This document shows, piece by piece, positions 1 to 19,200 of a DNA stretch of 64,000 nt. The notes below the pieces were generated by a model. It was not told where the DNA came from and ran no database searches. It saw only the letters and a list, made by a program, of their open reading frames with translations. This DNA is from an uncultured Clostridia bacterium (GTDB lineage Bacteria > Bacillota > Clostridia > TANB77 > CAG-508): positions 7,543 through 71,542 of the forward strand of contig CANPVP010000007.1 in assembly GCA_947581825.1 (NCBI GenBank), written 5' to 3'. Made by a program: the position numbers and the translations under genes. Within the stretch, counting starts at the first letter, position 1. Each line of letters opens with the position of its first letter.

Positions 1-3000
1 TGTAAATACTAATGGAAAATATAAAGATGGAGAGCAAACATTTACATTAGTACTAACTGAGCAAGAGAGTGGAAGATATATACCACTAGAACATGATATA
101 GAAATTGAGTATACTTGTAAATATGATACAACAAATGATAAATGGGAAACTAAGTATACAAAAGTAAAATATGGAGACAAACAGGCAGAGGTTAAAGTAC
201 AAAATAGCGAAGCACAAAATCTTACAGGTTTACTAGATACAGATGAACTAGGCTTGTATCAGAAAGGTACTGATATTTACGTAGTAAATAAACCAGACTT
301 TAATCCAGCTCAAATACTATTACAAAAGAAAGATGAAGAAGGAAATCTTATAAATGGAATTACTTTCAAAGGAAAAGTTGAGCAAGTAAATCCTATAGAA
401 GGTGAAAAAGCAGATGCTGTAAATTTCGAAGTAACAACTGGTGAATCAAAAGATGCTAATGGAAATATTCTACAAGGTGTTGCTTTAATAGATAATATAA
501 ACTTATCTAGAGAAATAAAAATTACTATAGAAAGTGAAGCATGGAAAGATAAAAATAATAAACAGCCTCTAGAGTTCCCAACAGAACCTATAGTAATTAC
601 AGGAATAGAAGTATATGATGATTGGGAAGGAAATATTGGATATAAAAAGATAAGAACAAAAGATGATAGTGGAAAGATTACTGTACAAATAGGTGAACAA
701 GAAGCACAAACAATTGATGTAAATAATAAAGACGAAGCTTCTGAAAACCTTGTATCTTTCACTGGAAATGACAGTAATGTTGTAACATTCTATATTACAA
801 ATAAAAATAAAACATATGATCTAGATGGAAAAGATGCTGATACAGGAATACCATTCCCATATAAAGTTGAAAGAGACATTTTAGGAAATGAAAAGAACGT
901 AACAGAAGGAATTACATTTACTGGAAGAATAGAAGATAGCAATGGAGAAATACTACAAGACCCAGTAACTGTACAATTTAAACAAAATGTAAATTCATCA
1001 GCAGATGGGGCAAATGGAGAAGTAGGCATTGAAGCTAAAGATATTAATGGAAAAATATCTGTAAAAGAAGGAGAACAAGAAGAAGAATATAAACTTATTA
1101 TAAAAGAAAATAATGTATCAAGTAACAACACTGATGCTGTAACAGTTATATACACTTGTAAATATAATAGCGATGAAGACGAGTTTACATCAAAAATAAA
1201 AGCCTATGAGTACAATGGAAAAAGATATGATTTTAACAAGAATATGGAAGAAGTTAAAAAAGACTTAATTCCAGGTGAAGTTAAAGATGATGGTGCAAGA
1301 ATAAATATAAATGATTTATATGTTCCTATAAGAAAATTTGATGAATATGGAAATCTAATAAATGGAGTTGTATTCAAAGGAAAAATAAAAGTAAACATAG
1401 AAAAAGATGAAAATGGACATCCAAAGGATTTTAACTTAAAAGAAGAATATGATTTTATAACAGTAACTGGTGGACAATACTGGAATGATGAAACAAAGCA
1501 GATGGAAACAGCTCCAGATGGTGTTGCAGTAATACCAATTCCAAGTGAAGTAAAAGGAGATTTCACTATAACTATTGACGAAGAATATTGGGGAACTTAC
1601 AAAGAGAATAAATGGACTACAGAAAAAGGAAAATTACCAGATGGACAATTCCCACTAGAATTTGTAAAAGGTGTAGTAGAAATAGGTGGATATGGCATTA
1701 AAGAAGAGACAAAAAATGATATAACAGAAAGAACTGTAACATATAACGGAACAACTGTTAAATATACATTAAATGGTAGTGAAGAAAATAGTGAACCTAT
1801 AGAAGTAGAAAATTATAAAGCTGTAACTACAGATGAAAAAGGTTATATTAGATTTATAAATAATGAACTTAGATATGATTTGAAAAAATCAACTGAAACA
1901 GGAGAAGGAAACAATTTATTTGATGATAAATTTTTAGAGACAAGTTATGGATATAGAACTAAAATAAAAGAAGGAATTTATTTTACAGGCTATATAGTTG
2001 ATGAAACTAAATATGATGAAAAGGGAAATATTATTAAACCTAGTGTAACATTACAAGAAGGTAGAAGTACAAAAGATCCAGAAGACAAAAATAAAGTTAC
2101 TGTTGCTTTAGATAAAGATACAGGAGCAATTGTAGCAACAGGAATTAAAGGAAGTATAGCAGGAATAGATGAAAATAAAACCTTTAAATTTGTATTAGAA
2201 GAATTAAGTTCAAATGGTGAAAATGGCACTCTTAATGTAGTACCAATAGATCCAATTGTAGTAGAATATACTTGTAAATATGATAGAGAAAATGAAAAAT
2301 TTGAAACAGCAATAACAGCATATGAATATAAAGGAAAAAAATATAGAATGTCAGATATTCAAGAACAAACAACTGTAGAAAAAGACATAATTCCTGGATT
2401 AGTATGTGTTAAAGAGGAAGAAAGTAGTATTACAGATAAAATTGGATTAATAAACCATGAAAAGACAATTGATATTCCTTTAGTTAAAAAGGATGAAGCA
2501 GGAAGATTAGTAAATGGAATTAAATTTACAGGAAAAATAATAGCATTAGACGAAGAATATAAAGACGAAAATGGAAAACCAGTATTTGAGACTACAGAGG
2601 AAACAAACAATAATGAACAACCTACAACAAAGAGAAAATCAATGAATTTTGAAGTAGTAACTGGTGAAGTTCCAACAAAAGATTCAATAAAATTAGATGG
2701 TAGCAAAAATGAAGCAAATAATAGCGAAGATAAAAACTTTACAGATGAAGATGGAAAACCAATGTATACAGCTCGTGATGGTGTTGCTTTAATACCTCAA
2801 ATTCCTTATACTGGAAAAGTTAAAATTATTATTGAAAAAGAAGAATGGGCAGATGAGGATTATAAGCCAGCTCCAGGAGATCCAGACCTTGAATTTATAG
2901 ATGGACAAATAGAAGTAACGTTTAGTATTGTCAAAGATAAAAATGGTGAAAAACACATAAATTATAATGGTGGAATGCAAATTGAAGTTAAGGATAGAAA

Positions 3001-6000
3001 TGGTCAAAATATTACAAATGACTATATGGATCCAAAGAATAATCAACACAAGATTATAGTTGGACCAAATTACTTGGGTAAAGATGAAAAAGATTTTGCT
3101 TTTGGAATTAGTGTTACAAATAAATTTAAATCTTATGATGTGCCAATAGCTCTAAAGGTAATTGAAGAAGATACAAATGCTGAAAATGAAGAAAATAATG
3201 AAAACAAAAACATTGTAACAGTAAATAATAAAAAATACAGACAACCAACAAAAGAAGAAGCAAAAGAAATTAAATTTAGAGCAGAAGTTACAGATAGTAG
3301 TGGAACTGTAGTACAAACTTTATTACCACTAACACCAGACGATATGGCAAAAGCAGATGCAGTAGGAATTGGAATTGAAGTTAAAGATATAGATAGTGAT
3401 GGCAAAGAAGAAGCTGTTATCATAGCAAAAGGTATAAAGGGAAGTATTAATAAAGGTGAAGATTTAATTATAAAATTACAAGAAGTGTATTCAGGCGGAT
3501 TAGAACCAATACCAGATATAAAAGTTCATTATAAAATTGAAAATGGTGAAGCAAAAATAACAAAATATGAATGCAATGGACAAACAGATGAATGTAAACA
3601 ACAAAATAATGGAACATGCAAGATAAAAGATTTAATTTATGTTAGCGAAGATGGTAAATATGCATTAGTAAATAAACCTGAAACAGGAGAAGGACCAAAA
3701 GAAACAACACCAATACTTACAATTAAAAAAGTAATGAATGTAGATGGACATGAGGTAGGAGTTCCAGGTATATACTTTAAAATAAGAGTATGTACTGAAG
3801 AATGTAAAAATGATTGCAAAGATCCAGATAAATGCTCTTGCCAAGAAGGTGAAGAACCATGTGAAAAATGCTTTGATTATACAGCAATTTCACAAGCATA
3901 TGGATTAACTACATTCAAACTTACAGATTTTGCAAAAAATAAAGAAGATATAACAACTGGCAAAGTAAAAGTTATTATACTAGAAGAAAGATTAGCAACA
4001 GAAGAAGACAAAGCAAAAATTAAAGAAAATTCAGAAGAAACATCAGAAGATGAGAAAACAGCAGAAGTAGCACCATATACTACTGAACAACCTGGAGAAG
4101 TTAAACTTGAATTTATTAAAAATCCAATTGTAATTAATGGAATTGAAATAAAGAATGGTGAAGAAGAAAATGGAGATAAACAATGTAAAGTAGATTATAC
4201 TAATGCTACAGTAGCTGATACAAACAGTAATGTAAGCTTTGATAATCAAGTAGGAATGCAGATTGTATTTACTAATAAAGAAGCTACATTTGATTTAGAT
4301 TTATTCAAAGGTAAAATGATTAACTATATTGGTGAATTAGAACAAATCTATAAAGGTGTAGAATTTGAAGCTGATGTAGTTAGAGCAGAAGATATAAAAG
4401 CAGAAAACATAGCAGAAGTAAGCTTACAACATATAGTTTCTACAACTGATGAATCTACTGCTGAAAATACAGGCGATAATGGAAACTTAGCTACAACTGG
4501 AATTGAGACAAATAATGGTAAAATTCAAATAAAAGGAATTAAAGGTACTTTTGCATCAGAAAGTAATGAAGAACAACAAGAAAATGCACAACAATATGCA
4601 GTGGTATTAAGAGAAACAGCATCAGAAATATCAGATGCAAAAGATATGCCAACAATGGCAATTGTATTTGAAAGTAAATGTACAACAGGAACAGACGGAA
4701 AATGCACATTCACCCCAACTATAAAAGAATATAAATGGCAAGATGATAATGGATGGCATACTTTAAATGCATTGCAAAATCTTGAACGTGATGAAAATGG
4801 CAATTTAGAACAAGTCCTTGTTACTAATAGAATGTTGAGAAAGATTGAAAATGGTAAAGAAGAAACATATATAGTTAATACACCACCAACAACAATAATT
4901 GGTGGAGGATATTTACCAACAACAGTTGATATTCCTTTAGTTAAATATGATGAAAATGGAAATTTAGTAAATGGAGTAAAATTCTCAGGACATATAGAGG
5001 TTGGTAATCAACAGAAAATGAAATTCTCAACAATAACTGGTGAAGTTCCAACAACAACAATTGCTAATGGATTTGAAAATGTATATGTAGCTCGTGATGG
5101 TGTTGCAATAATACCAAAAATTCCATTTACAGGAGAAGTTAAAGTAGTTATTGAAAAAGAGGAATGGGCTAGTGATGCTTATAAACCATCTGCAGGTTAT
5201 CCAGATCTAGAGTTTATAGATGGAAAAATAGAAATAACATTAACTATAAATGAAGATGAAAAAGGAAATAAACATATTCAACAAGGTGGCATAAGCATAG
5301 CAGTAAAAGGCAAAGACGATAAAGACATTACAGACCAATATATTGATAGAAAAAATGGTAATAATAAAGTTTTAGTTGGATTAAATAGTTTAAATAAAGA
5401 TGATAACGAAGATAACGAAGAATTATTATTCGGAATTAAAATTACTAACAAAATTAAAACTTATGATTTACCAATAGCATTAAAAGTAATTGCAGAAGAT
5501 AACGAGAATGCTAATGGAGCAAATACTATAAAAGTAGGTGATAAAACATATAGAACACCAAGCACAGAAGAAGCTAAAGAACTTAGATTTAGTGCAGAAG
5601 TTTTAGATAGTACTGGAACTGTAGTACAAAACTTATTACCATTAACACCAGAACAAATGCAAAATGCAGATGCAGTGGGAATTGGAATTGCTACTAAAGG
5701 ATCAGACAACAAAACAGAAGCTGTTATTACAGCAAAAGGAATAAAAGGAAGCATAGTAGGAGATAACTTAACGATAAGATTACACGAAGAGAATTCTGCT
5801 GGATTAGAACCAATACCAGATATAGATGTTCATTATAAAACAATTGGAGATGATGCTCCAAAAGTAACATCATATCAATGTGGTGAGAAAACAGTAGAAA
5901 ACAGTGCACCAACAAATGGTGAACAATGCAATATAGAAGATTTAATTTATGTTAGCGAAGATGGTAAATATGCATTAGTAAATAAACCTGGAACAGGAGG

Positions 6001-9000
6001 AGGACCAAAAGAAACAACACCAGAACTTACAATTAAAAAAGTAATAAATGTAGATGGACATGAAGTAGGAGTTCCAGGTGTACACTTCAAAATAAGAGTA
6101 TGTACTCCTGAATGTAAAAACGATTGTACAGATGTAGCAAAATGCGGATGTGAAAACAATAATGATTGTGATAAATGTTATGATTATGAAGCAGTTTCTA
6201 AAGCAGGTGGTTTAGCTACTTTTGAACTTACAGATTTCAGCAAAGATACAACAGCTCAAAACATTGATAATCTAAAAGTAATTATATTAGAAGAAAAATT
6301 AGCAACAGAAGAAGAGAAGGCACAACTAGCAAAAGAAGGAGTTGAACCATATACTACTGAAAACCCTGGAGATGTTAAACTTGAATTTATTAAAAATCCA
6401 ATTACAATTAATGGAATACAATTAAAGAATGCTACAGAAGGAAAAAAGACACAATGCACAGTAGATTATACTAATGCTACAGTAGCAGATGAAAATAGTA
6501 ATGTACGTATCGATAACAACGCAGGAATGCAAATTGTATTTACTAATACAGAAGCAACATATGATTTAAAATTATTTGATAGCAAACTAGTATATGAAGA
6601 TAATAAATTAAAACAAATCTATAAAGGTGTAGAATTTGAAGCTGATATAGTTAGAGTTGAAGACATAAATGCAGAAAACATAGCAGAGAAGAGTTTACAA
6701 CATTTTGTTTCTGAAAAAGCCAAAGCTACTGCTAATAACACAGGCAAAAATGGAGATTTAGGTACAGTAGGACTAGATGAAAGTAATGGTCAAATCAAGC
6801 TAAAAGGAGTTAAAGGAACTTTAGAAGGAGATAATGGACAAGAATATGCAGTTATGTTAAAAGAAACATCATCAGAAGTATCAGATGCAGACGATATGCC
6901 AACAATGGTGATTGTATATAAATGTACTTGTACAACAGATGGAAATGGAAAATGTCAATTTAAACCAGAAATCGAAGAATACAAATGGCAAGATGATGAA
7001 GGATGGCATTCTCTAAATCCAACTCAAAATATTCAAACAGGTGAGAATGGACAGATAGAAAAGAATGAAATTATTGTTGATGGTAGAGTTAAAATACAAG
7101 TATTAGACGATAATAACAAGGTAGTTTCTCTAATTAATGATGGTGGAAAAATAGAACTTTCTACTTCTGAAAGTATTAAATTAACTAAAAAGGACAGCAA
7201 TGGAAATACAGTAGGAGGTATAGAATTTAAAGGAAAAGTAATTGCTTTAAATGCTGATGGAACACCAAAGAAAGAAGCTATGTCAGATGAACAAGGAAAT
7301 ATTATACAAGGCACAAAGAATATTGAATATGAATTTGATGTAATAACTGATAATAAAGGAACAGCTTTAATATACACACCAGATGCTAAAGAAATGCCAA
7401 AATACGAAGGTAAAATTAAAGTTGTTATTGAAGATGAAAAATGGGCAGCAAGTGTAACAGAGCCACCTTATAAACTAGGCTTTGCAGATGAAATAATCGA
7501 AATCACAGGATTAGAGTTAAAAACAGAAACAACTGGACAACTAAAAAACGGAAAAATTGTACACACTAGAGTTATTTATCCAGAACAACTTACTGTAACA
7601 TCTTATAAAAAAGGAGAAAATGGAACAAAAACAGAAGCAACAAATACATACAAAGATAAGGTTTCATTAGGTAAAGATAGTGTTATAGGAATTGAAATTG
7701 AAAACTCAATTTTAGACTATGATGTAGATTTATTTGATGCAAAAATCTTAAAATATGGTGAACACTATGAACAACTAAATTCAGATGTTACATTCTCAGG
7801 AAGAATTATAGGCTACAAAGGTAAAGATTCTAAGCAAGAAGCTAAAGACTATGATGTAGAAGTTAAATTGATTGAAGAAAATGATACAACATCAGGACAA
7901 CAAGGAACAGCAAATGGTAAAAAAGGTAAAATCGTTGCAAAAGGAATAAATGGAGAAATAACAGGAAGCGGTATATACTTAGAACTAATAGAAAAATCTA
8001 TTAATTATGATGTAGAAGATGTAACAGTTATAATCAAATATGATTATACTCCTGATGCACAAGGAAAAGGTACACCAGTTATAAAAGAATATAGAAAATG
8101 GAAAGATGGTGTAAAGGGTGAAGCAAAAGGAAATGTTTCAGATAATACTACAGATTTAATTTGTAATGCAGAAGGTGATGATAATGCCAAAGCATTAATT
8201 GGTGAAATGATTTATAAAAACTATAGTGATACAGCTAAGAATAGCTTAGTAAATATAGTTACTCCAAATCCACTAGACCTTCAAATTAAAAAAGTAGATA
8301 GCAATGGAAAACCTGTTGCAGGAATTAAGTTTACAGGAAGAATAATTGCTGTAGATGATAAAGGTGAAGCTAGAAAAGAAAAAGATGCACAAGGAAAAGA
8401 AGTTGAAATCAAGAAAGAATTTACAACAAGTATAGCAAACTCAGAAGAGCCTCTACAATGGATTACATCTGATTCAGATGGTGTTGCAAGTTTACACTTA
8501 ACATCAGAAGAAGTTAATAAATTTGCAGGAAAGATTAAGATTGAAATAGACAGTGAGGAATGGAGTACAGATGAAAAAGATCCATTAAGAGTTGACTCAT
8601 CAAAACGTACACCATTAGACTTTATCGATGGAAAAATAGAAATTACTGGAAAGAAAATTGATGTTCAAAAAGATAAAACAAGTAGTATAATAAATGCTGA
8701 AAATAATGGAACACCAACAGTAAAAATTATGAAAGATAAAGAAGATGTTACTGAAAAATATAAAGATAGAGTTAATGCAAATTCAAATGAAATTGCTTTA
8801 AGCATGAAGAATATTATTAAAGAATATGATTTAAAATTATTTAATAAGAAGATTATAAATGTAAATGGAGAAGAAATACAAATTAAAGGAGCCATTACAT
8901 TTACAGGAGAAATTAAACAAAACGACCAAACATATCCTATTACTATAGCTTTTGGTCCAGAAACAGATGGTGCAATTATTGCAAAAGGTATCAGAGGAGA

Positions 9001-12000
9001 GATAGTAGGAGATAATATTAAACTTTCAGTTAAAGAAGCAAAAACAATTCCAGGAATTGTTCCAGTAGATTTTGATATAGTATATTCTTGTACATATAAT
9101 GATGGTAAGTTTGAAACAACGATATCAAAGAAAACAATTAAAGACCAAAATACAGGAGAAACTCTAAAAGAAATAAATGGAACAAATGAAAATGGAGATG
9201 TTTTAGAGGAAGACATTACAAAAGATGGTGTAGAATTACAGATTAGAAAAGTGGATGAACATAATGTACCAGTAGCAGGAATTAAATTCTCAGGAACAAT
9301 AACATCAGAAGAAAATAATGGTGGAAAAATAACATTTTCTACTAAGGCAACTGATGAAAATGGTATTACAACTATAATTATTTCAAAAGCTGATATAGAG
9401 CAATACATAAAATTAGGTAGGTTTAATGTAGTTATAGACAAAGAAGAATGGGATAATGGAGCAGAAGCAAAATGGAATGCAATAGCAGGAAATGCTGATA
9501 GAAAACTTCAATTTATAACCTCACCTGTAACAATTTCAGGTTATAAGTTATTTGAAACTTGGGATGGTAACTATGCTCATAGAAGTGTAGACTTTAGTGG
9601 AATAAGCTGTGAAGATACAGAGCATGTTGAACTAGAAAAAGATACAGTAACAATTAAATTTAAAAACAACGATTTAACATACAACATACCATTTATTAAA
9701 ACAGATAAATTATTAACTAATGATAACCAAGATAGTGCTGAAAAATTAAAAGAAGTATCATTTGATATTTCTATAAAAGAAAGTGATGAAGATAACAATC
9801 CACAAAGATTTTATACAACATCTGATGACAATGGTAGATTTGATATAGAAGGAGTTTCAAAATTTGGAGATAATGTAACTTTAACATTAAAAGAGATTAC
9901 TTCTGAAAATGAAACAGCCCAAATGCTAGATGAACCAATAATAATTACTTATAAAACTGTAATAAGTAATGGAAAAGTTTCATTAGAAAATGTAAAAATT
10001 AATGGTAAGGAAATAGATGCACCTTCTGATGATCAAGTTAATAAAACAGATATAGAAGAAGAAAAAGAAAACAATATACAAAAAATCGATGTACAACAAG
10101 ATGAAGGAATAGTGTTAGCAGGATTTAATGTTGTAAACTTTAAAAAATATAGAATTACAATAGATAAAGACTTAAAAGTTGAGGATACAACAATAGATGC
10201 AACTGAATCTGTAGGATTTAAAGGTATTATTACAACAGATCCAAGTAAAGTAAATGGCAATAATACAATTATGAGTTATAAAGATTTTGAGAGTAAGTTA
10301 GAAACATGGAAGAATAGCTCTGATAAAGATGTAATTTACTTTGATGGTCATACAACTGGTGGAAAATTAGAAATTCCAAAAGACATAGATTTCTATGATA
10401 AGCAAGTTTATGTGTACTTTATTGAGTACGATGTTCCAGCTACAATGACTGAAATTAATGAGGTTATGTGGGCATCATTCAATAAGAGAATAACAAATGC
10501 TGAGGCAAATAGTGCATCTTCAGCAGGTAATGTTGAAATTACAAATACAGATACATTAAATATAAGTATTAAAGTTGTAAACCAAGCAAAATCTTATAAT
10601 GTTAACTTTAAGAAAATAGATGCACAAGATCCAAATAGGCAAATTGACTATAGCAATGCTAAATTTACAGTACAATTAAAAGCTTTGAAAGAAGACAACT
10701 CAGCTACTGAAGTAGTTGATACAATGGATATTGAATTTAATGGATTAGGAAAAATAAAAGAACAAACAAAGCCTGGAAAATACTTAGTTGATGCAAAATT
10801 TGAAGATAATCAAATTAAAATTGATGTAAATAAATTTGGTAATTTACAATTAGTAGTAACAGAGGATAGAGCACCAGCAAATTATCAAAAACTAGATACA
10901 GATATTGTAATTAATTATAAAGCAAATGCAGAAGCATCAGAAAAAGACAAAATAATAACTGATGTTCAACTTGAAAAGAATACAAATCCAAGCATTAAAG
11001 ATAAAATAAATGCAAAACCTAATGCTAAAGGAAATGATGTAAGCTTAGACTTCACATTACCAAACTATCCAAATGAATATAGTTTAACGATTAAGAAAAA
11101 ATCTAGAACAAATCCTGACAGTATATTAAATAATATTCAATTCCAATTATTGTTCTACAAAAATAGTGATAATAAAGAGAGATTTGAATATCTAGAAAAA
11201 ACATTGTATGTTGTTAATGGAGGAAAAGTAACAGTAGATGGCTTAAAAGAATATGGTGCAAATTATATGGTACTTCATGAAACAGAAACTGATGGAAAAG
11301 TAGTTAAGCTTCCTGGATATCATGTGTTTAATGTAGAAGCAGTAGTTGGACAAAAACCAAAATTAACATACTTAGGAATGTTTAAATCAGATAAAGAAAA
11401 AGAAGCTGATTATACTATAGAAGAAATAGATAGTAAGTTTAAAGAGCAAGATATTTCTAAACTAGATAAAGCATATAGTAGTTATTTCAAAACAGATGAA
11501 AATTCTGTTGAAGTAGGAAGCTTAGTTGTTGGAAATGATGAACCAAAACTTTACGATATAGATATATTAAAAATAGCTGAAGAAAAAGATGCAAAAACTG
11601 GAAAATCAAATCCACTAGAAGGAGCAATATTTAACTTATACTTAACTAAATCAGATGAAGATTATGCAACAGGAGAGAACCTATTAGATGTTAAATATAG
11701 AAGACAAACAACACCAGTAGATGGACTTATTTCTATCAAACAATTAGATAAGTATAGCGATAAATATGGTGATTTAAAATTAACCTTAGTTGAAGAAAAA
11801 CCACCAAAAGACTATAAAACAGTATTTAGTAAAATAGAAGTAACATATAATACAACAGATGGAAAAACTATTGAAATAAAATCAATAAAAGTATTTGATG
11901 CAAATAATAAAGAAATGTCAGATTACAAAAAATATGTAAACATAACTAATGGTAGTACAGACAAGAAAATAGAAGAATCTAAAATAGAAATAAGTGTTCT

Positions 12001-15000
12001 AAATCCACATAAAAAATCAGTACCATTAGGAATAAAGAAGGTTTACTATGAAGAAACAATAGAAAATGGACAAAGAACAAAGAAAGAAAAACCTATTAGT
12101 AATGCAACATTTAGTGGTGTCGTTTATGAAATAGGTAATCCAGATGATAAAACACCATTTACATCTAAACCAACTGGAGAGGACGGTACTGTTAAGCTTG
12201 GAGACTTCTATGTTGAAGGCGAAATTGAGGTAGTAATCGAAGAAATTAGTTCACCTGATGGATTTGAAAAAATACCTAAAACTACAATAGAGTGTTATGT
12301 TGGCGAAGAAAACAAGGCTACTAAAATAGATAAAAAATATGAAATTTCTACAAATGCAATAGAGTCAATTGAATATACTAATAATATGAATCTATTAAAA
12401 GTTGTTGATACACCAATTTTTGAAACAGACATATCTTTAGCAGGTATTGTTTGGGAAGATAGACCAACAACATTAAGTGAAAAAGAAGAGGCAGATTATA
12501 CAGTAGTCGATGGAAATAAGTATGTTGCAGGAGAAGGTTTTTATGATGAAGGTATAGATAAACTTATTACAAGTAAAAATGCAGATGGTGATGCTACATC
12601 AGAAGTAAATGATGTTGTAGATGGTATGATAGTTACATTACATAAATTAGAGCGTAATGATAAAAATGAGTGGAGAGAGAAAAATGAATACACAGGTTTT
12701 GCAAAAGTAACAACTGGTGATACAGGAAGATATGAATTTAGGGAATTAGACCCATTTGCAAAATACTATATTACATTTAAAATGGAAGGTAAGTATAATT
12801 CTGAAGATTATGAGCATGTTCATTTCTTAGTAGAAAAATTAAATGTTAGCGGTGAAGGTGATAATAAAACAGTAACAATAGACGATTATAACTCAATAGT
12901 AGAAGCAAAAGCTGCAAATAATCTTGAAAGTTGGAAACGAAATTCAAAGGCAGTAGCAGATGGTGTAGAGTCTGGCAATGGCGTAGATCCAAATATTTCA
13001 ACAACAACACAAACAAGAAATGCTAGAGGAAATAAAAACGGTGTTAACAAAATGGATAATATACAAAAATATCCAGTAGATGATTACTTTACTATAGTAG
13101 ATAAAGAAAAATATATAGATGAAAACGGTGAATATAAAGGAGCTTATGTACTTTTCAATGTAGATGTAACGGATAGTCAAAAATCAAATCAAACTATTGT
13201 CTATGCAGATTACTCAACAAGCGGAAAAGAAGAAGATAAGATTGAATTTAGTTCTTTAGATCCATGGCATGACTATATAAACTATGGTATCGTTGAAAAA
13301 CCTAAATTTGATTTATCACTAAGCAAAGATGTTGAAGAACTTTCAGTTAAAGTAAATGATAAAACGATGAAATATATATATGGTAACAAGATTGATTCAG
13401 GACATATGTATACATTAGAAATTAATGAAGCAGATATATCAAAACTAGCAGATATGAAAATTATTTATAAGATAGTTGTTAAAAACGAGAGCGTTAATCC
13501 AGGATACTTAAATTCAATAGCTGATTACTACAATTCAGACCTTATGAAATTTGAAAGCTGGAGTTTAGACGGAAAAAACTACGGAAAAACTGGAGTAACT
13601 GAAACAGAAGAAACTGGTTTAGTACCTGAGCAATATATAACAGGAGTAGTTGATGCAGATGGTAATAGTACAGGTGGAACTCTAACAGTAAATGGAGCTA
13701 ATACAAAACGAGTATTAATTCAAATTCCAGATGCTGAAGAAGGTAATAAGGATAAGAATAGAACAATATATTCAGGTGATGAAAATGCTAAAACAATTCT
13801 TATAACATATCAATATGATACAAATAAATTAAAAGAAAATGATAGTTTGTTTGGTAAGATTGCTAAAGCAGGAGATTCATATGTTACATTAGGACCAGCA
13901 GAAATTTATAGCAGTAATAGTCTAGGTGGCAGAAGAGATATAAACTCAATAAATGGAAATTTATCAAGTAAATTTACTGGTATTTATAACGAGCAGTTGA
14001 AAACTTTCTACACAAATTATGATAATGAGGGTGCATATTATCAAGATTTAAGACATAGCCTTGAAGGTGAAACAGATAAAGATGATGAAGATGTAGCACC
14101 AGCATTAAAAATACTAATAGCAGATCCAGGCAATAGAAAAATAACAGGTTCAGTATTTGATGATATAGAGGGAAACGGCTGGAAAGATGAAAATGATATA
14201 AATATTAAAGGAATAAAAGTTGAATTGTATAAGTGTGATGAAAATGGCAATATTAGAGAGGATGCAAAACCTGTACAATCAACCCAAACAGATGAAGATG
14301 GAAAATATGAATTTGTAGGAATTGAAACAGGATATTACAAAGTAAAATTCACATATGGTGATGAAAATACTCTATTACCTAAATTATATACAAGTACATA
14401 CAATAATGATTTATTAAAATATGTACAAGAACTACAAGAATTACCTGAATGGAATGATGAAGAAAATAATACTATTTATCCAAGAAATAATGAAAATTCA
14501 TATAATGGATTAGAATATGAAGATTCTACTCAAAATAAAATTATAGAGTATAATAGAGGAGATGAATATTGGTATAAGCAGAATAGAGATGAGGCATATT
14601 CTGATGCTGAAGACGAAGATGCATCAAGAAAAAAAGCAGATACAACTTTAAATGAAAGCGAATATTCTACAACAACAAACTATTATTTTATGGATAATGC
14701 AAAAGCCGAATTATTGTATTCATATAGAGGCGATATAACTCAAGAAGAAGTTCAAGAATACATTAGAAAATTAAAAGAAAATTCTGTAACAGCAACAACA
14801 GAGAAATTCAAAATTAATATTATGGATACAGATAGTGACGAACTAACATATGTTACTACAACAGAGTCAGGAGAGACACAATATACAGATGGTGAACATA
14901 TAATTGATACAGGATGTGAAGCTCAAATAGACTTTGGTGTTAAGCAAAGACCAAAAACAAATCTTAAAGTTGAAAAAACTGTAGATAATGTAAAAATCTT

Positions 15001-15856
15001 TACAAGTTCTGGAAATTCTAATGTAGATGCTTCTTACAAAGATGGACGTGCAATAGGGCAAGTAGGAAGAGTACAATGGAGTAAGGATTCTATTGCAGGA
15101 GAAAATGGAAATGGCAACAGAGGATACATTTGGATACAAAGATCAGAAGAAGAAATTGTAGGTGCTACATTAGAAATTACTTATAATATAAAAGTTAAAA
15201 ACGAAGAAGATGAAGCAACTAGAAAAGATCAATGGGTAACTATTGTAGATTATGTTCAAGAGGGTATGACATATTCTGATGAGAATAATACTGGTAATGG
15301 ATGGAATCTTCAAAAGGCTACAACTAAAGACAATAAGTCTTCAATTGGTAATATTTATATAAACAAAAATATTGACTTGACAAATGTAAGCACAGTAGTA
15401 ACACAAGACGTAGAATTACAAAATGGAGAATCAAAAGATATTAAGATTACATTAACAAAAACTCTAAATTCTTATAGTAATACTGATATTGATGCATATA
15501 CAAACTATGTAGAAGTAATATTAACAGCAACACCTGATATGGCTAAGAGTGACAAGAATTCTATACCAGGAAACTTCGATCCAAGTCAAGAAACAACATT
15601 AGAAGGAAACTTAGGAACAATATATGATTTACATCAGAATAGACGTGAAATAGAAGAAATACCATATGATCACCCAACTGAAGAAAGAACAACAATGAGA
15701 TTGGAAAGAGATACAGCAAAAGCACTAGAAACAATAAGTATTACAGCGGAAACTGGTGAGAATAGAAATACAGTATATTACATCTTGGCATTCGCAATAA
15801 TAGCAGTATTTGCAACAGGTATAGGAATAATTATTAAAAAAGTAATTAAGAAATAA
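1..15856 (+). CDS. Giant cell-surface fibrillar adhesin-like protein, 5'-partial (reading frame open from nt 2 to the window edge, so the true start lies upstream of the window). Tandem SpaA/Cna-B-type isopeptide domains, SdrD-B-like domains, conserved C-terminal module and a C-terminal TM anchor.
   Basis: 15.6-kb uninterrupted ORF in frame 2 with no in-frame stop from nt 2. Recurrent Cna-B/SpaA signatures, for example KKVDSNGKPVAGIKFTG, TEDRAPANY and LVEEKPPKDY (E-x-x-AP-x-GY type). SdrD-B-like segments such as KITGSVFDDIEGNGWKDEND...TDEDGKYEF...GYYKVKF. C-terminus ends ...ITAETGENRNTVYYILAFAIIAVFATGIGIIIKKVIKK, a hydrophobic helix plus basic tail. Colinear with gene 2 from about nt 22600 onward. 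Confidence 0.85.
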   Translation, partial: VNTNGKYKDGEQTFTLVLTEQESGRYIPLEHDIEIEYTCKYDTTNDKWETKYTKVKYGDKQAEVKVQNSEAQNLTGLLDTDELGLYQKGTDIYVVNKPDFNPAQILLQKKDEEGNLINGITFKGKVEQVNPIEGEKADAVNFEVTTGESKDANGNILQGVALIDNINLSREIKITIESEAWKDKNNKQPLEFPTEPIVITGIEVYDDWEGNIGYKKIRTKDDSGKITVQIGEQEAQTIDVNNKDEASENLVSFTGNDSNVVTFYITNKNKTYDLDGKDADTGIPFPYKVERDILGNEKNVTEGITFTGRIEDSNGEILQDPVTVQFKQNVNSSADGANGEVGIEAKDINGKISVKEGEQEEEYKLIIKENNVSSNNTDAVTVIYTCKYNSDEDEFTSKIKAYEYNGKRYDFNKNMEEVKKDLIPGEVKDDGARININDLYVPIRKFDEYGNLINGVVFKGKIKVNIEKDENGHPKDFNLKEEYDFITVTGGQYWNDETKQMETAPDGVAVIPIPSEVKGDFTITIDEEYWGTYKENKWTTEKGKLPDGQFPLEFVKGVVEIGGYGIKEETKNDITERTVTYNGTTVKYTLNGSEENSEPIEVENYKAVTTDEKGYIRFINNELRYDLKKSTETGEGNNLFDDKFLETSYGYRTKIKEGIYFTGYIVDETKYDEKGNIIKPSVTLQEGRSTKDPEDKNKVTVALDKDTGAIVATGIKGSIAGIDENKTFKFVLEELSSNGENGTLNVVPIDPIVVEYTCKYDRENEKFETAITAYEYKGKKYRMSDIQEQTTVEKDIIPGLVCVKEEESSITDKIGLINHEKTIDIPLVKKDEAGRLVNGIKFTGKIIALDEEYKDENGKPVFETTEETNNNEQPTTKRKSMNFEVVTGEVPTKDSIKLDGSKNEANNSEDKNFTDEDGKPMYTARDGVALIPQIPYTGKVKIIIEKEEWADEDYKPAPGDPDLEFIDGQIEVTFSIVKDKNGEKHINYNGGMQIEVKDRNGQNITNDYMDPKNNQHKIIVGPNYLGKDEKDFAFGISVTNKFKSYDVPIALKVIEEDTNAENEENNENKNIVTVNNKKYRQPTKEEAKEIKFRAEVTDSSGTVVQTLLPLTPDDMAKADAVGIGIEVKDIDSDGKEEAVIIAKGIKGSINKGEDLIIKLQEVYSGGLEPIPDIKVHYKIENGEAKITKYECNGQTDECKQQNNGTCKIKDLIYVSEDGKYALVNKPETGEGPKETTPILTIKKVMNVDGHEVGVPGIYFKIRVCTEECKNDCKDPDKCSCQEGEEPCEKCFDYTAISQAYGLTTFKLTDFAKNKEDITTGKVKVIILEERLATEEDKAKIKENSEETSEDEKTAEVAPYTTEQPGEVKLEFIKNPIVINGIEIKNGEEENGDKQCKVDYTNATVADTNSNVSFDNQVGMQIVFTNKEATFDLDLFKGKMINYIGELEQIYKGVEFEADVVRAEDIKAENIAEVSLQHIVSTTDESTAENTGDNGNLATTGIETNNGKIQIKGIKGTFASESNEEQQENAQQYAVVLRETASEISDAKDMPTMAIVFESKCTTGTDGKCTFTPTIKEYKWQDDNGWHTLNALQNLERDENGNLEQVLVTNRMLRKIENGKEETYIVNTPPTTIIGGGYLPTTVDIPLVKYDENGNLVNGVKFSGHIEVGNQQKMKFSTITGEVPTTTIANGFENVYVARDGVAIIPKIPFTGEVKVVIEKEEWASDAYKPSAGYPDLEFIDGKIEITLTINEDEKGNKHIQQGGISIAVKGKDDKDITDQYIDRKNGNNKVLVGLNSLNKDDNEDNEELLFGIKITNKIKTYDLPIALKVIAEDNENANGANTIKVGDKTYRTPSTEEAKELRFSAEVLDSTGTVVQNLLPLTPEQMQNADAVGIGIATKGSDNKTEAVITAKGIKGSIVGDNLTIRLHEENSAGLEPIPDIDVHYKTIGDDAPKVTSYQCGEKTVENSAPTNGEQCNIEDLIYVSEDGKYALVNKPGTGGGPKETTPELTIKKVINVDGHEVGVPGVHFKIRVCTPECKNDCTDVAKCGCENNNDCDKCYDYEAVSKAGGLATFELTDFSKDTTAQNIDNLKVIILEEKLATEEEKAQLAKEGVEPYTTENPGDVKLEFIKNPITINGIQLKNATEGKKTQCTVDYTNATVADENSNVRIDNNAGMQIVFTNTEATYDLKLFDSKLVYEDNKLKQIYKGVEFEADIVRVEDINAENIAEKSLQHFVSEKAKATANNTGKNGDLGTVGLDESNGQIKLKGVKGTLEGDNGQEYAVMLKETSSEVSDADDMPTMVIVYKCTCTTDGNGKCQFKPEIEEYKWQDDEGWHSLNPTQNIQTGENGQIEKNEIIVDGRVKIQVLDDNNKVVSLINDGGKIELSTSESIKLTKKDSNGNTVGGIEFKGKVIALNADGTPKKEAMSDEQGNIIQGTKNIEYEFDVITDNKGTALIYTPDAKEMPKYEGKIKVVIEDEKWAASVTEPPYKLGFADEIIEITGLELKTETTGQLKNGKIVHTRVIYPEQLTVTSYKKGENGTKTEATNTYKDKVSLGKDSVIGIEIENSILDYDVDLFDAKILKYGEHYEQLNSDVTFSGRIIGYKGKDSKQEAKDYDVEVKLIEENDTTSGQQGTANGKKGKIVAKGINGEITGSGIYLELIEKSINYDVEDVTVIIKYDYTPDAQGKGTPVIKEYRKWKDGVKGEAKGNVSDNTTDLICNAEGDDNAKALIGEMIYKNYSDTAKNSLVNIVTPNPLDLQIKKVDSNGKPVAGIKFTGRIIAVDDKGEARKEKDAQGKEVEIKKEFTTSIANSEEPLQWITSDSDGVASLHLTSEEVNKFAGKIKIEIDSEEWSTDEKDPLRVDSSKRTPLDFIDGKIEITGKKIDVQKDKTSSIINAENNGTPTVKIMKDKEDVTEKYKDRVNANSNEIALSMKNIIKEYDLKLFNKKIINVNGEEIQIKGAITFTGEIKQNDQTYPITIAFGPETDGAIIAKGIRGEIVGDNIKLSVKEAKTIPGIVPVDFDIVYSCTYNDGKFETTISKKTIKDQNTGETLKEINGTNENGDVLEEDITKDGVELQIRKVDEHNVPVAGIKFSGTITSEENNGGKITFSTKATDENGITTIIISKADIEQYIKLGRFNVVIDKEEWDNGAEAKWNAIAGNADRKLQFITSPVTISGYKLFETWDGNYAHRSVDFSGISCEDTEHVELEKDTVTIKFKNNDLTYNIPFIKTDKLLTNDNQDSAEKLKEVSFDISIKESDEDNNPQRFYTTSDDNGRFDIEGVSKFGDNVTLTLKEITSENETAQMLDEPIIITYKTVISNGKVSLENVKINGKEIDAPSDDQVNKTDIEEEKENNIQKIDVQQDEGIVLAGFNVVNFKKYRITIDKDLKVEDTTIDATESVGFKGIITTDPSKVNGNNTIMSYKDFESKLETWKNSSDKDVIYFDGHTTGGKLEIPKDIDFYDKQVYVYFIEYDVPATMTEINEVMWASFNKRITNAEANSASSAGNVEITNTDTLNISIKVVNQAKSYNVNFKKIDAQDPNRQIDYSNAKFTVQLKALKEDNSATEVVDTMDIEFNGLGKIKEQTKPGKYLVDAKFEDNQIKIDVNKFGNLQLVVTEDRAPANYQKLDTDIVINYKANAEASEKDKIITDVQLEKNTNPSIKDKINAKPNAKGNDVSLDFTLPNYPNEYSLTIKKKSRTNPDSILNNIQFQLLFYKNSDNKERFEYLEKTLYVVNGGKVTVDGLKEYGANYMVLHETETDGKVVKLPGYHVFNVEAVVGQKPKLTYLGMFKSDKEKEADYTIEEIDSKFKEQDISKLDKAYSSYFKTDENSVEVGSLVVGNDEPKLYDIDILKIAEEKDAKTGKSNPLEGAIFNLYLTKSDEDYATGENLLDVKYRRQTTPVDGLISIKQLDKYSDKYGDLKLTLVEEKPPKDYKTVFSKIEVTYNTTDGKTIEIKSIKVFDANNKEMSDYKKYVNITNGSTDKKIEESKIEISVLNPHKKSVPLGIKKVYYEETIENGQRTKKEKPISNATFSGVVYEIGNPDDKTPFTSKPTGEDGTVKLGDFYVEGEIEVVIEEISSPDGFEKIPKTTIECYVGEENKATKIDKKYEISTNAIESIEYTNNMNLLKVVDTPIFETDISLAGIVWEDRPTTLSEKEEADYTVVDGNKYVAGEGFYDEGIDKLITSKNADGDATSEVNDVVDGMIVTLHKLERNDKNEWREKNEYTGFAKVTTGDTGRYEFRELDPFAKYYITFKMEGKYNSEDYEHVHFLVEKLNVSGEGDNKTVTIDDYNSIVEAKAANNLESWKRNSKAVADGVESGNGVDPNISTTTQTRNARGNKNGVNKMDNIQKYPVDDYFTIVDKEKYIDENGEYKGAYVLFNVDVTDSQKSNQTIVYADYSTSGKEEDKIEFSSLDPWHDYINYGIVEKPKFDLSLSKDVEELSVKVNDKTMKYIYGNKIDSGHMYTLEINEADISKLADMKIIYKIVVKNESVNPGYLNSIADYYNSDLMKFESWSLDGKNYGKTGVTETEETGLVPEQYITGVVDADGNSTGGTLTVNGANTKRVLIQIPDAEEGNKDKNRTIYSGDENAKTILITYQYDTNKLKENDSLFGKIAKAGDSYVTLGPAEIYSSNSLGGRRDINSINGNLSSKFTGIYNEQLKTFYTNYDNEGAYYQDLRHSLEGETDKDDEDVAPALKILIADPGNRKITGSVFDDIEGNGWKDENDINIKGIKVELYKCDENGNIREDAKPVQSTQTDEDGKYEFVGIETGYYKVKFTYGDENTLLPKLYTSTYNNDLLKYVQELQELPEWNDEENNTIYPRNNENSYNGLEYEDSTQNKIIEYNRGDEYWYKQNRDEAYSDAEDEDASRKKADTTLNESEYSTTTNYYFMDNAKAELLYSYRGDITQEEVQEYIRKLKENSVTATTEKFKINIMDTDSDELTYVTTTESGETQYTDGEHIIDTGCEAQIDFGVKQRPKTNLKVEKTVDNVKIFTSSGNSNVDASYKDGRAIGQVGRVQWSKDSIAGENGNGNRGYIWIQRSEEEIVGATLEITYNIKVKNEEDEATRKDQWVTIVDYVQEGMTYSDENNTGNGWNLQKATTKDNKSSIGNIYINKNIDLTNVSTVVTQDVELQNGESKDIKITLTKTLNSYSNTDIDAYTNYVEVILTATPDMAKSDKNSIPGNFDPSQETTLEGNLGTIYDLHQNRREIEEIPYDHPTEERTTMRLERDTAKALETISITAETGENRNTVYYILAFAIIAVFATGIGIIIKKVIKK
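2470..4929 (+). repeat. Intragenic tandem repeat unit, copy a (about 2.46 kb, roughly 820 aa, multi-domain module containing the 7-Cys insert).
   Basis: Begins gatattcctttagttaaa (DIPLVKKDEAG...) and is colinear, domain for domain, with nt 4930-7090. Stretches are nearly identical at nucleotide level, for example 3628-3710 versus 5938-6020. Confidence 0.8.
4930..7090 (+). repeat. Intragenic tandem repeat unit, copy b.
   Basis: Begins with the identical gatattcctttagttaaa (DIPLVKYDENG...). Same domain order as copy a: VTGEVPT..., ARDGVA.IP, KIRVC-Cys cluster, YAVxLxET..., KEYKWQDDxGWH. Confidence 0.8.
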
Positions 15857-15886
15857 TAGTTACTGTAAATAATAATAAACCTAAAC

Positions 15887-15913
15887 AAAAAAACGAGCTT
15901 TGCTCGTTTTTTT
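15887..15913 (+). terminator. Rho-independent terminator of giant gene 1.
   Basis: aaaaaaacgagc-ttt-gctcgttttttt: perfect GC-containing stem with a 3-nt loop followed by a T7 run, 31 nt after the stop at 15854-15856. Confidence 0.8.
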
Positions 15914-16233
15914 GTTACCTCCAACTATTTGTTTTTATATTATATTATCAAAATTTTCATCAGCTTTTTTGGACAAAAAAAACGCAAAACTGGCTTTTCC
16001 CTAAGTATAGTGACATTTCAAATAAGCCAATGTAATGAAAAAATAATATAAATGAAACATTATGACATCAAACCCGCATCCGTAAAGACTTAGAGAGAAT
16101 ATTACTATATAATATATTGAAAAAAAAATTACAAAATGCAAAAATATCTATAAGTATGTTGCTAATTAACATAAAAATAATCGACAGCGATAAACACTAA
16201 ATTTAATACTAAAAGAGAGTAGTATTAAAATGA

Positions 16234-16240
16234 AAGGAGC
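16234..16240 (+). promoter_or_regulatory. Ribosome-binding site of giant gene 2.
   Basis: aaaggag located 6 nt upstream of ATG 16246. Confidence 0.7.
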
Positions 16241-16245
16241 AAAAA

Positions 16246-19200
16246 ATGGAAAGGATAAAACAAAAACTACTAGCAATAATCCTAATAATAATAGCTGGAA
16301 TAGTAGGATACCAAGCATATGTTATGGCACATGGATATCCAAGAGCAATTGGACAGGGTGTACCATTTTGGTCAAATGGATCTATGGTGTATTGTAGAGA
16401 GCATAACAATGGTTGGGGCTATGGACAAGGAGCTGCTGATAGAGCATCCTATTATGTATGCGTTGGCGAAGTTAGCACGGTGGCTAAACAAGCTGATGGA
16501 CTAGCATATTATGTATCTAGAGCAAGTGCAAGAAGTATACAGGATTTAATATGGAGTAAAAGTGGATCTAGTGCAGGACAATCAATAATAAATATGGGAA
16601 CTGATTTTAGAAGTTGGTTTGCACCATGGGGCAGTGATAATTTTGCAAATTTATTTTCTATAAATGAAGGAAATAAAGAAACAGGAAATGAAGAAAAAAA
16701 TTCAGCTTCAATGGAGGCTTTACGCAAAGATGTTACTGTTAAAGTTGTTGATGAACTTCCTGACTGGTTTTTTACAAATGTAAATGCTGGTTCTGTAGGA
16801 GAAAGTGATAAAAAGAATAATAGTACAGCTCTTTCTGATAGTGAAATAAACGTGATTATTAAGGAATATGAAAAAAATCACACAAAGGAAGAAACAGAAG
16901 CTTTTAAAAAAGAATTAAAAGATGCACAAAATAACGAGAAAATAATCGAAACAACAGTAAACAAGGTAATTAATACTATAAAAGCAAAGAGTATAGACAT
17001 AAATAGATTTACTGAAGAGCAGAGTAATGAACTTAAGGCAGAAATTCAAAAAGAAGAAGGTATAAAAAATAGTATTATTCCAAGTAAGAAAAAAGAAATT
17101 GAGCAACAAATTAAAAATAAAGAGAGAGAAAATGTAAATGATATAAATAAAGTAGCAACTGAAGAAGTAACAGAAGATATTTTACAAAGAGCAGTAACAA
17201 AAATTGAATTAGAGCAAAATGAAAAAGAAGAAGAGAAAATAGAAAAAGAATTAAAGAAAATAGAAGAACTTTTAGAAAAAGAAAATTTACAACAAGATTT
17301 AAGAATAATAAAAGAAGATTTAAAGACTATAAGAGATAATTGGAATACTACAAAAGAAAAGTACAAAGCAAATCAAATAAGTGTAGAAGATTATAAGAAA
17401 ATAGAAGATGAATACTATAACAAAGTATTAAAAGATATACAAACAATTTTAGTAAATAATTATGAAAATACTGAAGAGTTGAATCAATATAAAGGAAATC
17501 AAGATGCAAGTGAAGAAGAATCTTATAATTTAGTAGACTTAATAGTAGAACAATCAGGCAAAATAAGTGATATATCTTATGATGAATATAAATATTTATA
17601 TGATATGCATAAATTATTTCAATTTTTTGGTAGTTACAAAAACCAAGCAAATACCTTTTTAGATGGAAATGTAAATTCAGAATCATGGAATTTATTATTA
17701 AGACATTTAAATAGTTATTCATCAGATGGTACAAGTAATTTATTAAGAAAAGTAGATAAAAATATCTCAATGGCTGATAAAAATTCTACAACATATGTTT
17801 CAAATGTAACTCAACTTGATCAATCTAAAATAGTTTCAGTAGAAAGTAAAGATAATTCATATGGAACTGCTGTAGACATTTATGCACATTATCAATTAAA
17901 TTTAACAAGCGAACAACAAGCAAAATTGAATAGCATGAATAATGAAAATGAGAAAAGAGAATATCAGAAAACAATTGGACAAACATTATGGGCTTATCAA
18001 TCAGATAGAAAAAAAGATAAAGATGGAAAAGAGATTACACATCAAATAACAATAGATGGACAACAAAAAACTTATTATGAATATGAAAAAATATATTTTG
18101 AAGATCAAGCAGATTCTGTTGTTTCTTTCTTTAGTGAAGAACTACTTTGTATAGGAACAGACGATCAAGATGGTGTAATTGGTACAAATGCAAGCGAAAC
18201 TAGTGCTTTATTAAAATATATTGAATGCTTTAAAGATGATGCAAAGGGTACTACAGAGTTTTGTTCGTTTATAAAGAATAAATATCCTAATTTAGCAAAA
18301 CAATTATCAGAAGCAAAAGGAAGTAATTTAAGCGAAAGAATAATAAATTTATATAATAAATATACAAGCAAAATAACAAATATCTGCCAAGAAGATAATT
18401 CAGAACATTACTATGTATATAAAAATAAAGTGGAAGAAAATTATTGGGATCTTAATTGGGGAGATACAAAAAAAGCAGCTAGATTATATCAATGGTTGAT
18501 GACAAGAGATGCAGAAGGTGTAACTAACATAGATAAAATAGCAGGTCAATTTTCAATTGATGATACTGATGCAAGGGTTTCAATAGATAGAGTAAGTGGA
18601 AAATATCTTATTGGACCATATACAATAAATTATTCAACTTTGATATTAAATGGTGAGAAATTATTAGGAATAGATGATTTTTCAGTATTGTTATCAATGG
18701 GAGAGAATGGAAAAGAAGTAAATAAAGTTCTAACTCAAGGAGATGGAAAAGACCAATATAATATAGTTTGTATGAAAGGTACAACAAGAAATATTAAAAA
18801 TAAAGATGGAAAAACTATAGAAGTTCCTAAGAGTGGAAATTCATTCTTTATTGAATTAGATAAAGATGTAAAAGGTAATGGAAAACGTTTAACAGAAAAT
18901 GATATATTTAAATTTAATATTTCATATGAATACTTAAAGCAAATAAATGCAACAGTTCACTTATTAAGAGATAGTGCAAGTGATGCATCTAGTGGTACTC
19001 CTGATATATGGAATTCTTCTCACCCTCAAAGATTAATGACATTTACTTGGAGATCAGAAAGAGATTATATTGATAAGTCTATTGCAACTAGTACAAGAGA
19101 GTATGACTTTAAATTGAGAAAAACTGATAAAGAAACAGGTAAAGGTGTTAATGGTGGTAAATATATTGCTGCTGCAAAATATAAAAATTCAAAAGATGGT

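Follow-up and report, generated by a model that had tools for sequence, protein, structure and literature searches.

A tandemly duplicated two-module cassette in a giant, probably surface-displayed protein of an uncultured gut Clostridia bacterium

Two units in tandem within gene 1

The DNA analyzed here, referred to as the window, is a stretch of 64,000 nucleotides (nt) from an uncultured gut Clostridia bacterium (assembly GCA_947581825.1, contig CANPVP010000007.1, positions 7,543 to 71,542), the first 36 kb of which are occupied by two giant open reading frames (ORFs), designated gene 1 and gene 2. Gene 1 contains two consecutive copies, U1 and U2, of a multi-domain unit, and we conclude with good confidence that the region they occupy (2465-7174) arose when a two-module cassette was duplicated long ago, in tandem and in frame; the cassette is predicted to form four immunoglobulin (Ig)-like beta-sandwich domains and lies in the repetitive stalk of a probable surface protein of approximately 7300 amino acids (aa). 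Comparison of the two units by BLASTP yields an in-frame, end-to-end alignment of 813 columns (817 bits, E = 0), and 10-mers shared within positions 1-16000 are most numerous at offsets between 2250 and 2319 nt, where 30-nt bins hold 129-132 of them, the median being 3. The alignment and this diagonal bear out the original prediction, made from the sequence of the window, that a whole multi-domain cassette had been duplicated in tandem and in frame; chance similarity of the units was considered and rejected. The off-diagonal line that had been expected at about 2.46 kb does exist in the self-comparison, but it runs mostly at 2.25-2.32 kb and lies at 2457 nt only at the very start, after which the offset passes through 2376, 2319-2304, 2274-2265, and 2250 nt. 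It shifts eleven times, each time by a multiple of three, as in-frame indels would produce, and in-frame deletions totaling 207 nt make U2 the shorter of the two copies.

The identical 18-mer GATATTCCTTTAGTTAAA that had been reported to head both units occurs exactly twice, at a spacing of 2457 nt (819 codons), although its copies begin at 2471 and 4928 rather than at 2470 and 4930. The previously proposed unit boundaries also required adjustment, as the starts were one or two bases out of frame and U2 ends at 7174 instead of 7090. An aa identity of 60-70% had been estimated for the diverged parts of the units; in a MAFFT alignment U1 and U2 are 60% identical over ungapped columns and 54% identical when gaps are counted, which places them at the low end of that range. 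Their DNA is 74.5% identical over ungapped codons, with a longest exact match of 54 nt.

Comparison with related proteins reveals which genes carry the additional copy. Gene 1 and gene 2 were found by tiling to be collinear paralogues along their whole length, at a protein identity of mostly 35-50%. An exhaustive profile search of 1.84 billion representative proteins returned three matches, namely gene 2 itself, P0002 (6806 aa), and P0003 (5291 aa), showing that this family of giant proteins is very rare, and the sole match among 185,579 species genomes was a 7107-aa protein (L001) from a rabbit-gut Clostridia metagenome-assembled genome (MAG), which is the orthologue of gene 2. Because P0002 aligns collinearly with gene 1, and at an identity (50-74%) that clearly exceeds the level observed between gene 1 and gene 2, we treat it as the probable gene-1 orthologue in another species. 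Across the duplicated region, the alignment offset of gene 1 falls from approximately +2120 to approximately +1360 aa relative to gene 2, and from +2192 to +1495 aa relative to P0002. With a profile of the unit, gene 1 is found to carry it twice at full length, gene 2, P0002, and the L001 protein to carry it once, and P0003 to have part of it; the single copy that had been noted in gene 2 is thereby confirmed, at 25009-27525. Gene 1 is collinear with gene 2 apart from one additional unit.

Table 1. Positions of the genes, units, and sequence features discussed in the text (window coordinates)
Feature	Start	End	Strand	Description
Gene 1	2	15856	+	truncated by the left edge of the window, 5284 aa visible; encodes the predicted giant surface protein
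Gene 2	16246	36285	+	6679 aa; complete paralogue of gene 1
Unit 1 (U1)	2465	4921	+	819 aa; basic modules a (2468-3718) and b (3719-4924)
Unit 2 (U2)	4922	7174	+	751 aa, 2253 nt; basic modules a (4925-6028) and b (6029-7174)
18-mer GATATTCCTTTAGTTAAA, first copy	2471	2488	+	codes for DIPLVK, which forms the first strand of module a and contains the conserved Lys
18-mer GATATTCCTTTAGTTAAA, second copy	4928	4945	+	
Single unit copy of gene 2 (U')	25009	27525	+	35-37% identical to U1 and U2
Cys-rich loop (7 Cys), U1 module b	3785	3871	+	
Cys-rich loop (7 Cys), U2 module b	6095	6178	+	
Gene-conversion tract, U1 side	3620	3796	+	at the a/b module boundary
Gene-conversion tract, U2 side	5930	6106	+	offset 2310 nt

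Relative age of the duplication and traces of gene conversion

The duplication had been described as recent, a claim that its divergence contradicts. By the Nei-Gojobori method, U1 and U2 differ by 0.43-0.44 substitutions per synonymous site (dS) and 0.28-0.30 per nonsynonymous site (dN), and the resulting dN/dS of approximately 0.65 suggests loose constraint on surface residues. The dS relative to the P0002 unit is 0.51 for U1 and 0.57 for U2, and that relative to the gene 2 copy is approximately 0.8; the gene 2 copy is separated from its L001 orthologue by a dS of 0.23. Protein identities are 59% between U1 and U2, 62% between U1 and P0002, and 59% between U2 and P0002, such that the two copies are as distant from each other as either is from the P0002 unit. 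On the basis of the dS values and these three nearly equal protein identities, the duplication is estimated to be about as old as the split of the two species and younger than the separation of gene 1 from gene 2, and therefore far from recent.

The phylogenetic signal within the alignment is a mosaic. Over the first 400 columns U1 groups with the P0002 unit (bootstrap values of 99.5% for protein and 98% for nucleotides), in columns 400-800 it groups with U2 (66% for protein, 88-92% for nucleotides), and the tail gives weak support to a grouping of U2 with P0002 (63%). Three-taxon arithmetic on dN assigns branch lengths in the head of approximately 0.23 to U2, 0.08 to U1, and 0.11 to P0002, and in the tail of approximately 0.28 to U1, against 0.15 and 0.13 for the others. 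Because the branches are longer for the head of U2 and the tail of U1, the two halves that flank the new internal junction have evolved at two to three times the rate of the outer ones.

The same mosaic could also have been produced if the two-copy state were ancestral to both the window species and the P0002 species, with the P0002 unit representing a chimera, composed of a U1-like head and a U2-like tail, that resulted from an unequal crossover deleting one unit. The well-supported head grouping of U1 with P0002 is consistent with such a history, as is the lower dS in the head between these two (0.41, versus 0.56 between U1 and U2), and so is the tail grouping of U2 with P0002, where dN is 0.28 versus 0.41-0.43. 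We nonetheless consider this history to be possible but rather doubtful. Third codon positions in the head give an equivocal signal (279:159:62), gene 2 also has many of the shared features, which are thus ancestral states, and the combination of a fast U2 head, a fast U1 tail, and a distant outgroup (35% identity) could yield the pattern by long-branch attraction; the head grouping could be due to such attraction of a rapidly evolving U2. Because attraction to this outgroup could mimic an ancestral two-copy state, the mosaic fits that state and also a duplication in the lineage of the window followed by asymmetric divergence of the copies, and this ambiguity as to whether the duplication preceded the split from the P0002 lineage is one point that can be held against the proposed explanation. 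The chimeric history bears on timing only, however, and is compatible with an old tandem duplication of the cassette.

The stretch 3628-3710 had been singled out as nearly identical to 5938-6020, and indeed 81 of the 83 positions agree. This similarity extends over the tract listed in Table 1, in which 93.8% of the bases of U1 and U2 agree (93% of those at third codon positions) and each unit is 79.7% identical to P0002; dS is 0.03 over 3620-3760 and 0.48 outside of a wider patch spanning 3604-3835. Because the synonymous sites of the tract are not conserved between species, and because both copies are equally far from P0002, its near-identity is attributed to later gene conversion between U1 and U2 and not to constraint or to youth. 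A similar event is indicated for the paralogous genes. A 300-nt patch of gene 1 (8789-9088) is 93.3% identical to the corresponding patch of gene 2 (29095-29394), and each side is just 74-76% identical to its own orthologue (L006 and L001, respectively). As the patch is closer between the paralogues than it is to either orthologue, these values point to gene conversion between genes 1 and 2 as well.

Several features of the units are those that might be expected of a recent duplication within a "periscope"-type repeat array, whose copy number varies readily between strains through recombination of near-identical repeats: an identical 18-mer opens both units, there are an exact match of 54 nt and a tract of roughly 180 nt at 94% identity, and gene 1 has two copies where its orthologue has one. 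We judge this account to be very unlikely, and it is largely refuted by the overall DNA identity of 75%, the dS of 0.44, and the eleven offset changes caused by in-frame indels. High identity is confined to a short tract in which neither copy is closer than the other to P0002, an indication of gene conversion and not of youth. Moreover, periscope proteins depend on high DNA identity between their repeats (PMC8201768), and the length of gene 1 is the same in all of the sister assemblies described below.

The strain comparison comprised the window and four sister assemblies, all of near-identical strains, with the sister loci reaching only to 6246. Relative to the window, the sisters carry 36-168 substitutions over the 32-40 kb compared. 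Gene 1 is called as a 7309-aa protein in three of them, and in the fourth it has the same total length but is split by a nonsense codon. The strain-level copy-number variation that had been anticipated is not seen, as no difference in the number of units is visible among the five assemblies, although strains this similar provide a weak test; between species, the count is two in gene 1 and one in P0002. These data also bear on whether a repeat was mis-joined or doubled during short-read metagenome assembly. The source is a SPAdes-type metagenome contig of approximately 6x coverage, and such assemblies are error-prone at repeats. Nevertheless, an artefact is extremely improbable: between U1 and U2 a quarter of the bases are different and indels account for a further 207 nt, and thus neither is a copy error of the other, an open reading frame runs through both, and the same 7309-aa gene was recovered in the three other assemblies.

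Some further differences among the sisters fall within or beyond U2. In ERZ27249148, which has approximately 6x coverage, a TAT-to-TAG change at window positions 6620-6622 (L005 375-377), inside U2, breaks gene 1 into a 4231-aa and a 3000-aa product, and may represent either a sequencing error or a genuine change of the pseudogenizing or phase type. Relative to the four sisters, U2 also carries 16-19 clustered substitutions (approximately 4.5%) at 6511-6910, as compared with roughly one per 1-2 kb elsewhere, and in L002 about 130 substitutions are found in rpoB (43500-45000). Both look like recombination imports or local hypervariability, and we interpret the U2 cluster as a patch that was imported or evolves rapidly. 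The cluster provides no evidence for conversion of U2 by U1 in the sister strains, since one allele matches the U1 base at 16 of 18 sites, as plain allelic divergence predicts.

Predicted fold of the modules and probable display at the cell surface

An iterated profile of module heads identifies nine in the visible part of gene 1 (at aa 104, 439, 823, 1243, 1642, 2013, 2392, 2758, and 3077), and thus at least nine in the whole gene, and seven each in gene 2 and P0002. By this measure, the unit corresponds to two consecutive basic modules of 370-420 aa each, the second of which is characterized by a loop containing seven cysteines. Within U1, the first half shows weak similarity to the second (E = 1e-4), and 16 modules of the window align over their full length at approximately 25% identity.

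AlphaFold2 applied to the whole 819-aa unit (three sequences) gave a poor model, with a predicted local distance difference test (pLDDT) score of 48.8, and this model was not used. A single module was therefore modeled with the alignment of 16 modules, using the compact module at 8273-9229 (319 aa) as the target. The resulting model (pLDDT 87.2, predicted template modeling [TM] score 0.79) consists of two beta-sandwich domains, formed by residues 1-182 and 184-318. When this model was compared with the Protein Data Bank (PDB) using Foldseek, the major pilin Spy0128 of Streptococcus pyogenes was the top match (3gle, 3b2m; E = 2e-4, probability 0.98), followed by PitA, SpaE, the Bacillus anthracis TIE protein, SpaA, and CppA.

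Nine columns of the 16-module alignment are invariant, including K7, E95, N180, and E255 (16/16), while K193 is retained in 15 of the 16 modules and the terminal residue is N or D in an equal number. In the model, each domain carries one triad of these residues, with one member on an early strand, one on a central strand, and one on the final strand. Each domain of Spy0128 contains an isopeptide bond between Lys and Asn, with an acidic residue nearby (PMC2886109). Because two Lys/Glu/Asn triads per module are conserved and are placed as in Spy0128, the model suggests that the modules are stalk domains stabilized by isopeptide bonds. None of the unit's four triads has been lost from U1 or U2, from the gene 2 copy, or from the units of P0002 and L001. 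As both copies in gene 1 retain the residues that would define the fold, the extra cassette is probably structural and functional.

The loop with seven cysteines is inserted in the first domain of each b module and is kept in all five homologues of the unit, including the gene 2 copy, where it lies at 26401-26478. Its pattern is RVC-x3-C-x3-C-x5-C-x-C-x6-C-x2-C, with variants, and cysteine makes up just 0.4-0.7% of each giant protein overall. The loop may constitute a metal-binding or disulphide knot.

The termini of the giant proteins bear on their attachment to the cell. A hydrophobic segment resembling a signal anchor is present at the N-terminus of gene 2, and all five giants end with the sequence ISITAETGENR, a hydrophobic helix, and a basic tail (KKVIKK). 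The corresponding C-terminal regions lie at 15700-15856 in gene 1 and at 36130-36285 in gene 2. This end is laid out like a sortase signal but has a non-canonical motif, and it is likely that the giants are displayed at the surface, with their central region most likely serving as a rigid, cross-linked stalk of pilin-like modules.

A number of observations weigh against these assignments. The C-terminal motif is TAETG and not LPXTG, no NCBIfam anchor model matches it, and the window contains no sortase gene. No adhesive tip domain was recognized in the approximately 2200 N-terminal residues. Sequence searches of Pfam, NCBIfam, and the PDB, covering the unit, the modules, and both protein termini, yielded no usable match. 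The unit has no sequence-level match in Pfam or the PDB, and curated families of the relevant kinds (Cna_B, SpaA, SdrD_B, and the like) give no Pfam hit within it; SpaA produces a weak hit in one of the 16 modules (E = 8.8e-5), and SdrD_B is detected only far downstream, near the C-terminus. Global TM-scores to the pilins are also low (0.23-0.25), as is expected of multi-domain rods whose domains are set at differing angles.

In the mechanism we propose, the duplication followed the separation of gene 1 from gene 2 and either roughly coincided with the split from the P0002 species or preceded it. The copies then diverged by substitutions and in-frame indels, most rapidly beside the internal junction, and the tract of approximately 180 nt was later homogenized by gene conversion. 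With all four triads present in both copies, the product would be a stalk of nine rather than seven pilin-like modules, which would place the N-terminal part at a greater distance from the cell. The suggestion that gain of a cassette lengthens the fibre is thus retained as a likely consequence, and by analogy with two-domain pilins the increase is estimated at some tens of nanometres.

Pilins of the Spy0128 type, including SpaE, PitA, SpaA, and CppA, are built from two or more tandem Ig-like domains with intramolecular Lys-Asn isopeptide bonds. The basic module, predicted to consist of two beta-sandwich domains arranged end to end, has its best fold matches in the PDB among these pilins, and, as in Spy0128, each predicted domain has a conserved Lys in an early strand, a Glu in a central strand, and an Asn or Asp in the last strand (PMC2886109). 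Whereas pilins of approximately 300-650 aa are joined covalently into a fibre by sortases, the giants fuse seven to nine modules in one polypeptide of 6700-7300 aa. They also differ from pilins in having no detectable sequence similarity to them and no LPXTG or pilin motif, and their own isopeptide bonds are putative.

Fibrillar adhesins and periscope proteins possess a long stalk of tandem Ig-like domains, whose length depends on how many repeats it contains (PMC8201768, PMC9210967). The giants resemble these proteins (SasG, Aap, Sgo_0707, Rib/alpha-like proteins, and Esp) in having a stalk of repeated domains, and by analogy the product of gene 1 may work in the manner of a fibrillar adhesin stalk. 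Periscope proteins have repeats that are highly identical in both DNA and protein and whose number varies between strains, whereas the repeats here are 25-60% identical in protein (75% in DNA and 60% in protein between U1 and U2, approximately 25% among other modules), and their number is constant among the near-identical strains compared, which is weak evidence on this point. TIE proteins, adhesins with thioester, isopeptide, and ester-bond domains, represented by that of B. anthracis (6fwv, which is among the fold matches) and Cpe0147 of Clostridium perfringens, provide a third comparison, as they too are Firmicute proteins with a cross-link-type Ig-like stalk. A conserved Cys ... Q..[IV]W motif near the N-terminus of the giants is loosely similar to theirs, but no thioester-domain profile matches the giants, which are about ten times longer.

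This motif belongs to an N-terminal domain of approximately 100 aa (16321-16650, gene 2 aa 26-135), which is also present in the L001 protein, P0002, and P0003 and conforms to [VI][YF]CRE..N ... AYY ... [VI]Q..[IV]W..SG, loosely like thioester-domain motifs. We tried and rejected an assignment of the N-terminus as a thioester domain, as a Pfam search with four N-termini found nothing at a threshold as permissive as E <= 10 and the Cys and Gln are only about 50 aa apart, compared with about 150 aa in known thioester domains.

Family members and genomic setting

We also put forward, tentatively and with nearly even confidence, a more general description, according to which the giants constitute a very rare and previously undescribed family of gut Clostridia proteins, 5300-7300 aa in length, whose stalk amounts to a pilus made as one polypeptide. 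It would comprise seven to nine Spy0128-like two-domain modules, each with two self-forming isopeptide bonds, and would evolve by duplication of cassettes, faster change beside new junctions, and gene conversion both within and between paralogues. The duplication itself is an ordinary, textbook lengthening of a repetitive surface protein, of which it is a clean example in that the paralogue, the orthologue, and the conversion tract can all be read from the sequence. The host genes are almost entirely "dark," and the remaining interest lies in the rare, unannotated family to which they belong. An alignment of modules from the window alone was sufficient to produce a confident pilin-like model with conserved triads, giving annotators a handle on such proteins, and the compact 319-aa module is an object in which isopeptide bonds could be tested.

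Within the approximately 12,000 visible residues of both giants, Pfam recognizes one SdrD_B domain near each C-terminus and nothing else, and NCBIfam has no match in the giant proteins. No relative was found in metagenomes of the Joint Genome Institute (JGI) scanned with different alignments. A word-indexed protein search with U1 or the Cys-rich segment likewise returned no match, although this search evidently does not reach these giant proteins.

The P0002 species carries a second giant resembling gene 1, a protein of 6682 aa encoded upstream of P0002 (L006 1-9446), which is 57% identical to P0002, 54% to gene 1, and 41% to gene 2. Between the two giants of L006 there is a PDDEXK_2 (Rpn-like) gene, which has no counterpart in the window. 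A matching reading frame lies upstream of the gene-2 orthologue at L001 71-658 and is Rpn-like by position and by eye alone. The giant genes are thus also duplicated and relocated in their entirety.

The window is DNA of a bacterial chromosome with a GC content of 29%. Downstream (3') of the giant genes are tadA, dnaX, recR, rpoB, rpoC, a gene for an LCP protein, mecA, radC, mreBCD, and genes for PBP2 and minC, and a tRNA and the signal recognition particle (SRP) RNA are also encoded. The RpoB protein of the window is 87% identical to proteins labeled "MAG: Clostridia bacterium." In sister contigs from metagenome assemblies of the European Nucleotide Archive (ENA), gene 2 differs from that of the window by a single amino acid.

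Two short pieces near the start of gene 2 are 86-92% identical to the locus of the rabbit MAG, while the coding sequence has diverged much further. One, at 16030-16182 (L001 920-1071), lies wholly upstream of the start codon, and the other, at 16191-16300 (L001 1573-1682), spans it; this conservation may reflect a promoter or leader. Finally, ORFs of 167-258 aa are present on the minus strand within the giant genes, at 8665-9441, 26853-27356, and 28932-29630, and are most likely by-products of the A/G-rich, stop-poor codon usage of the sense strand.

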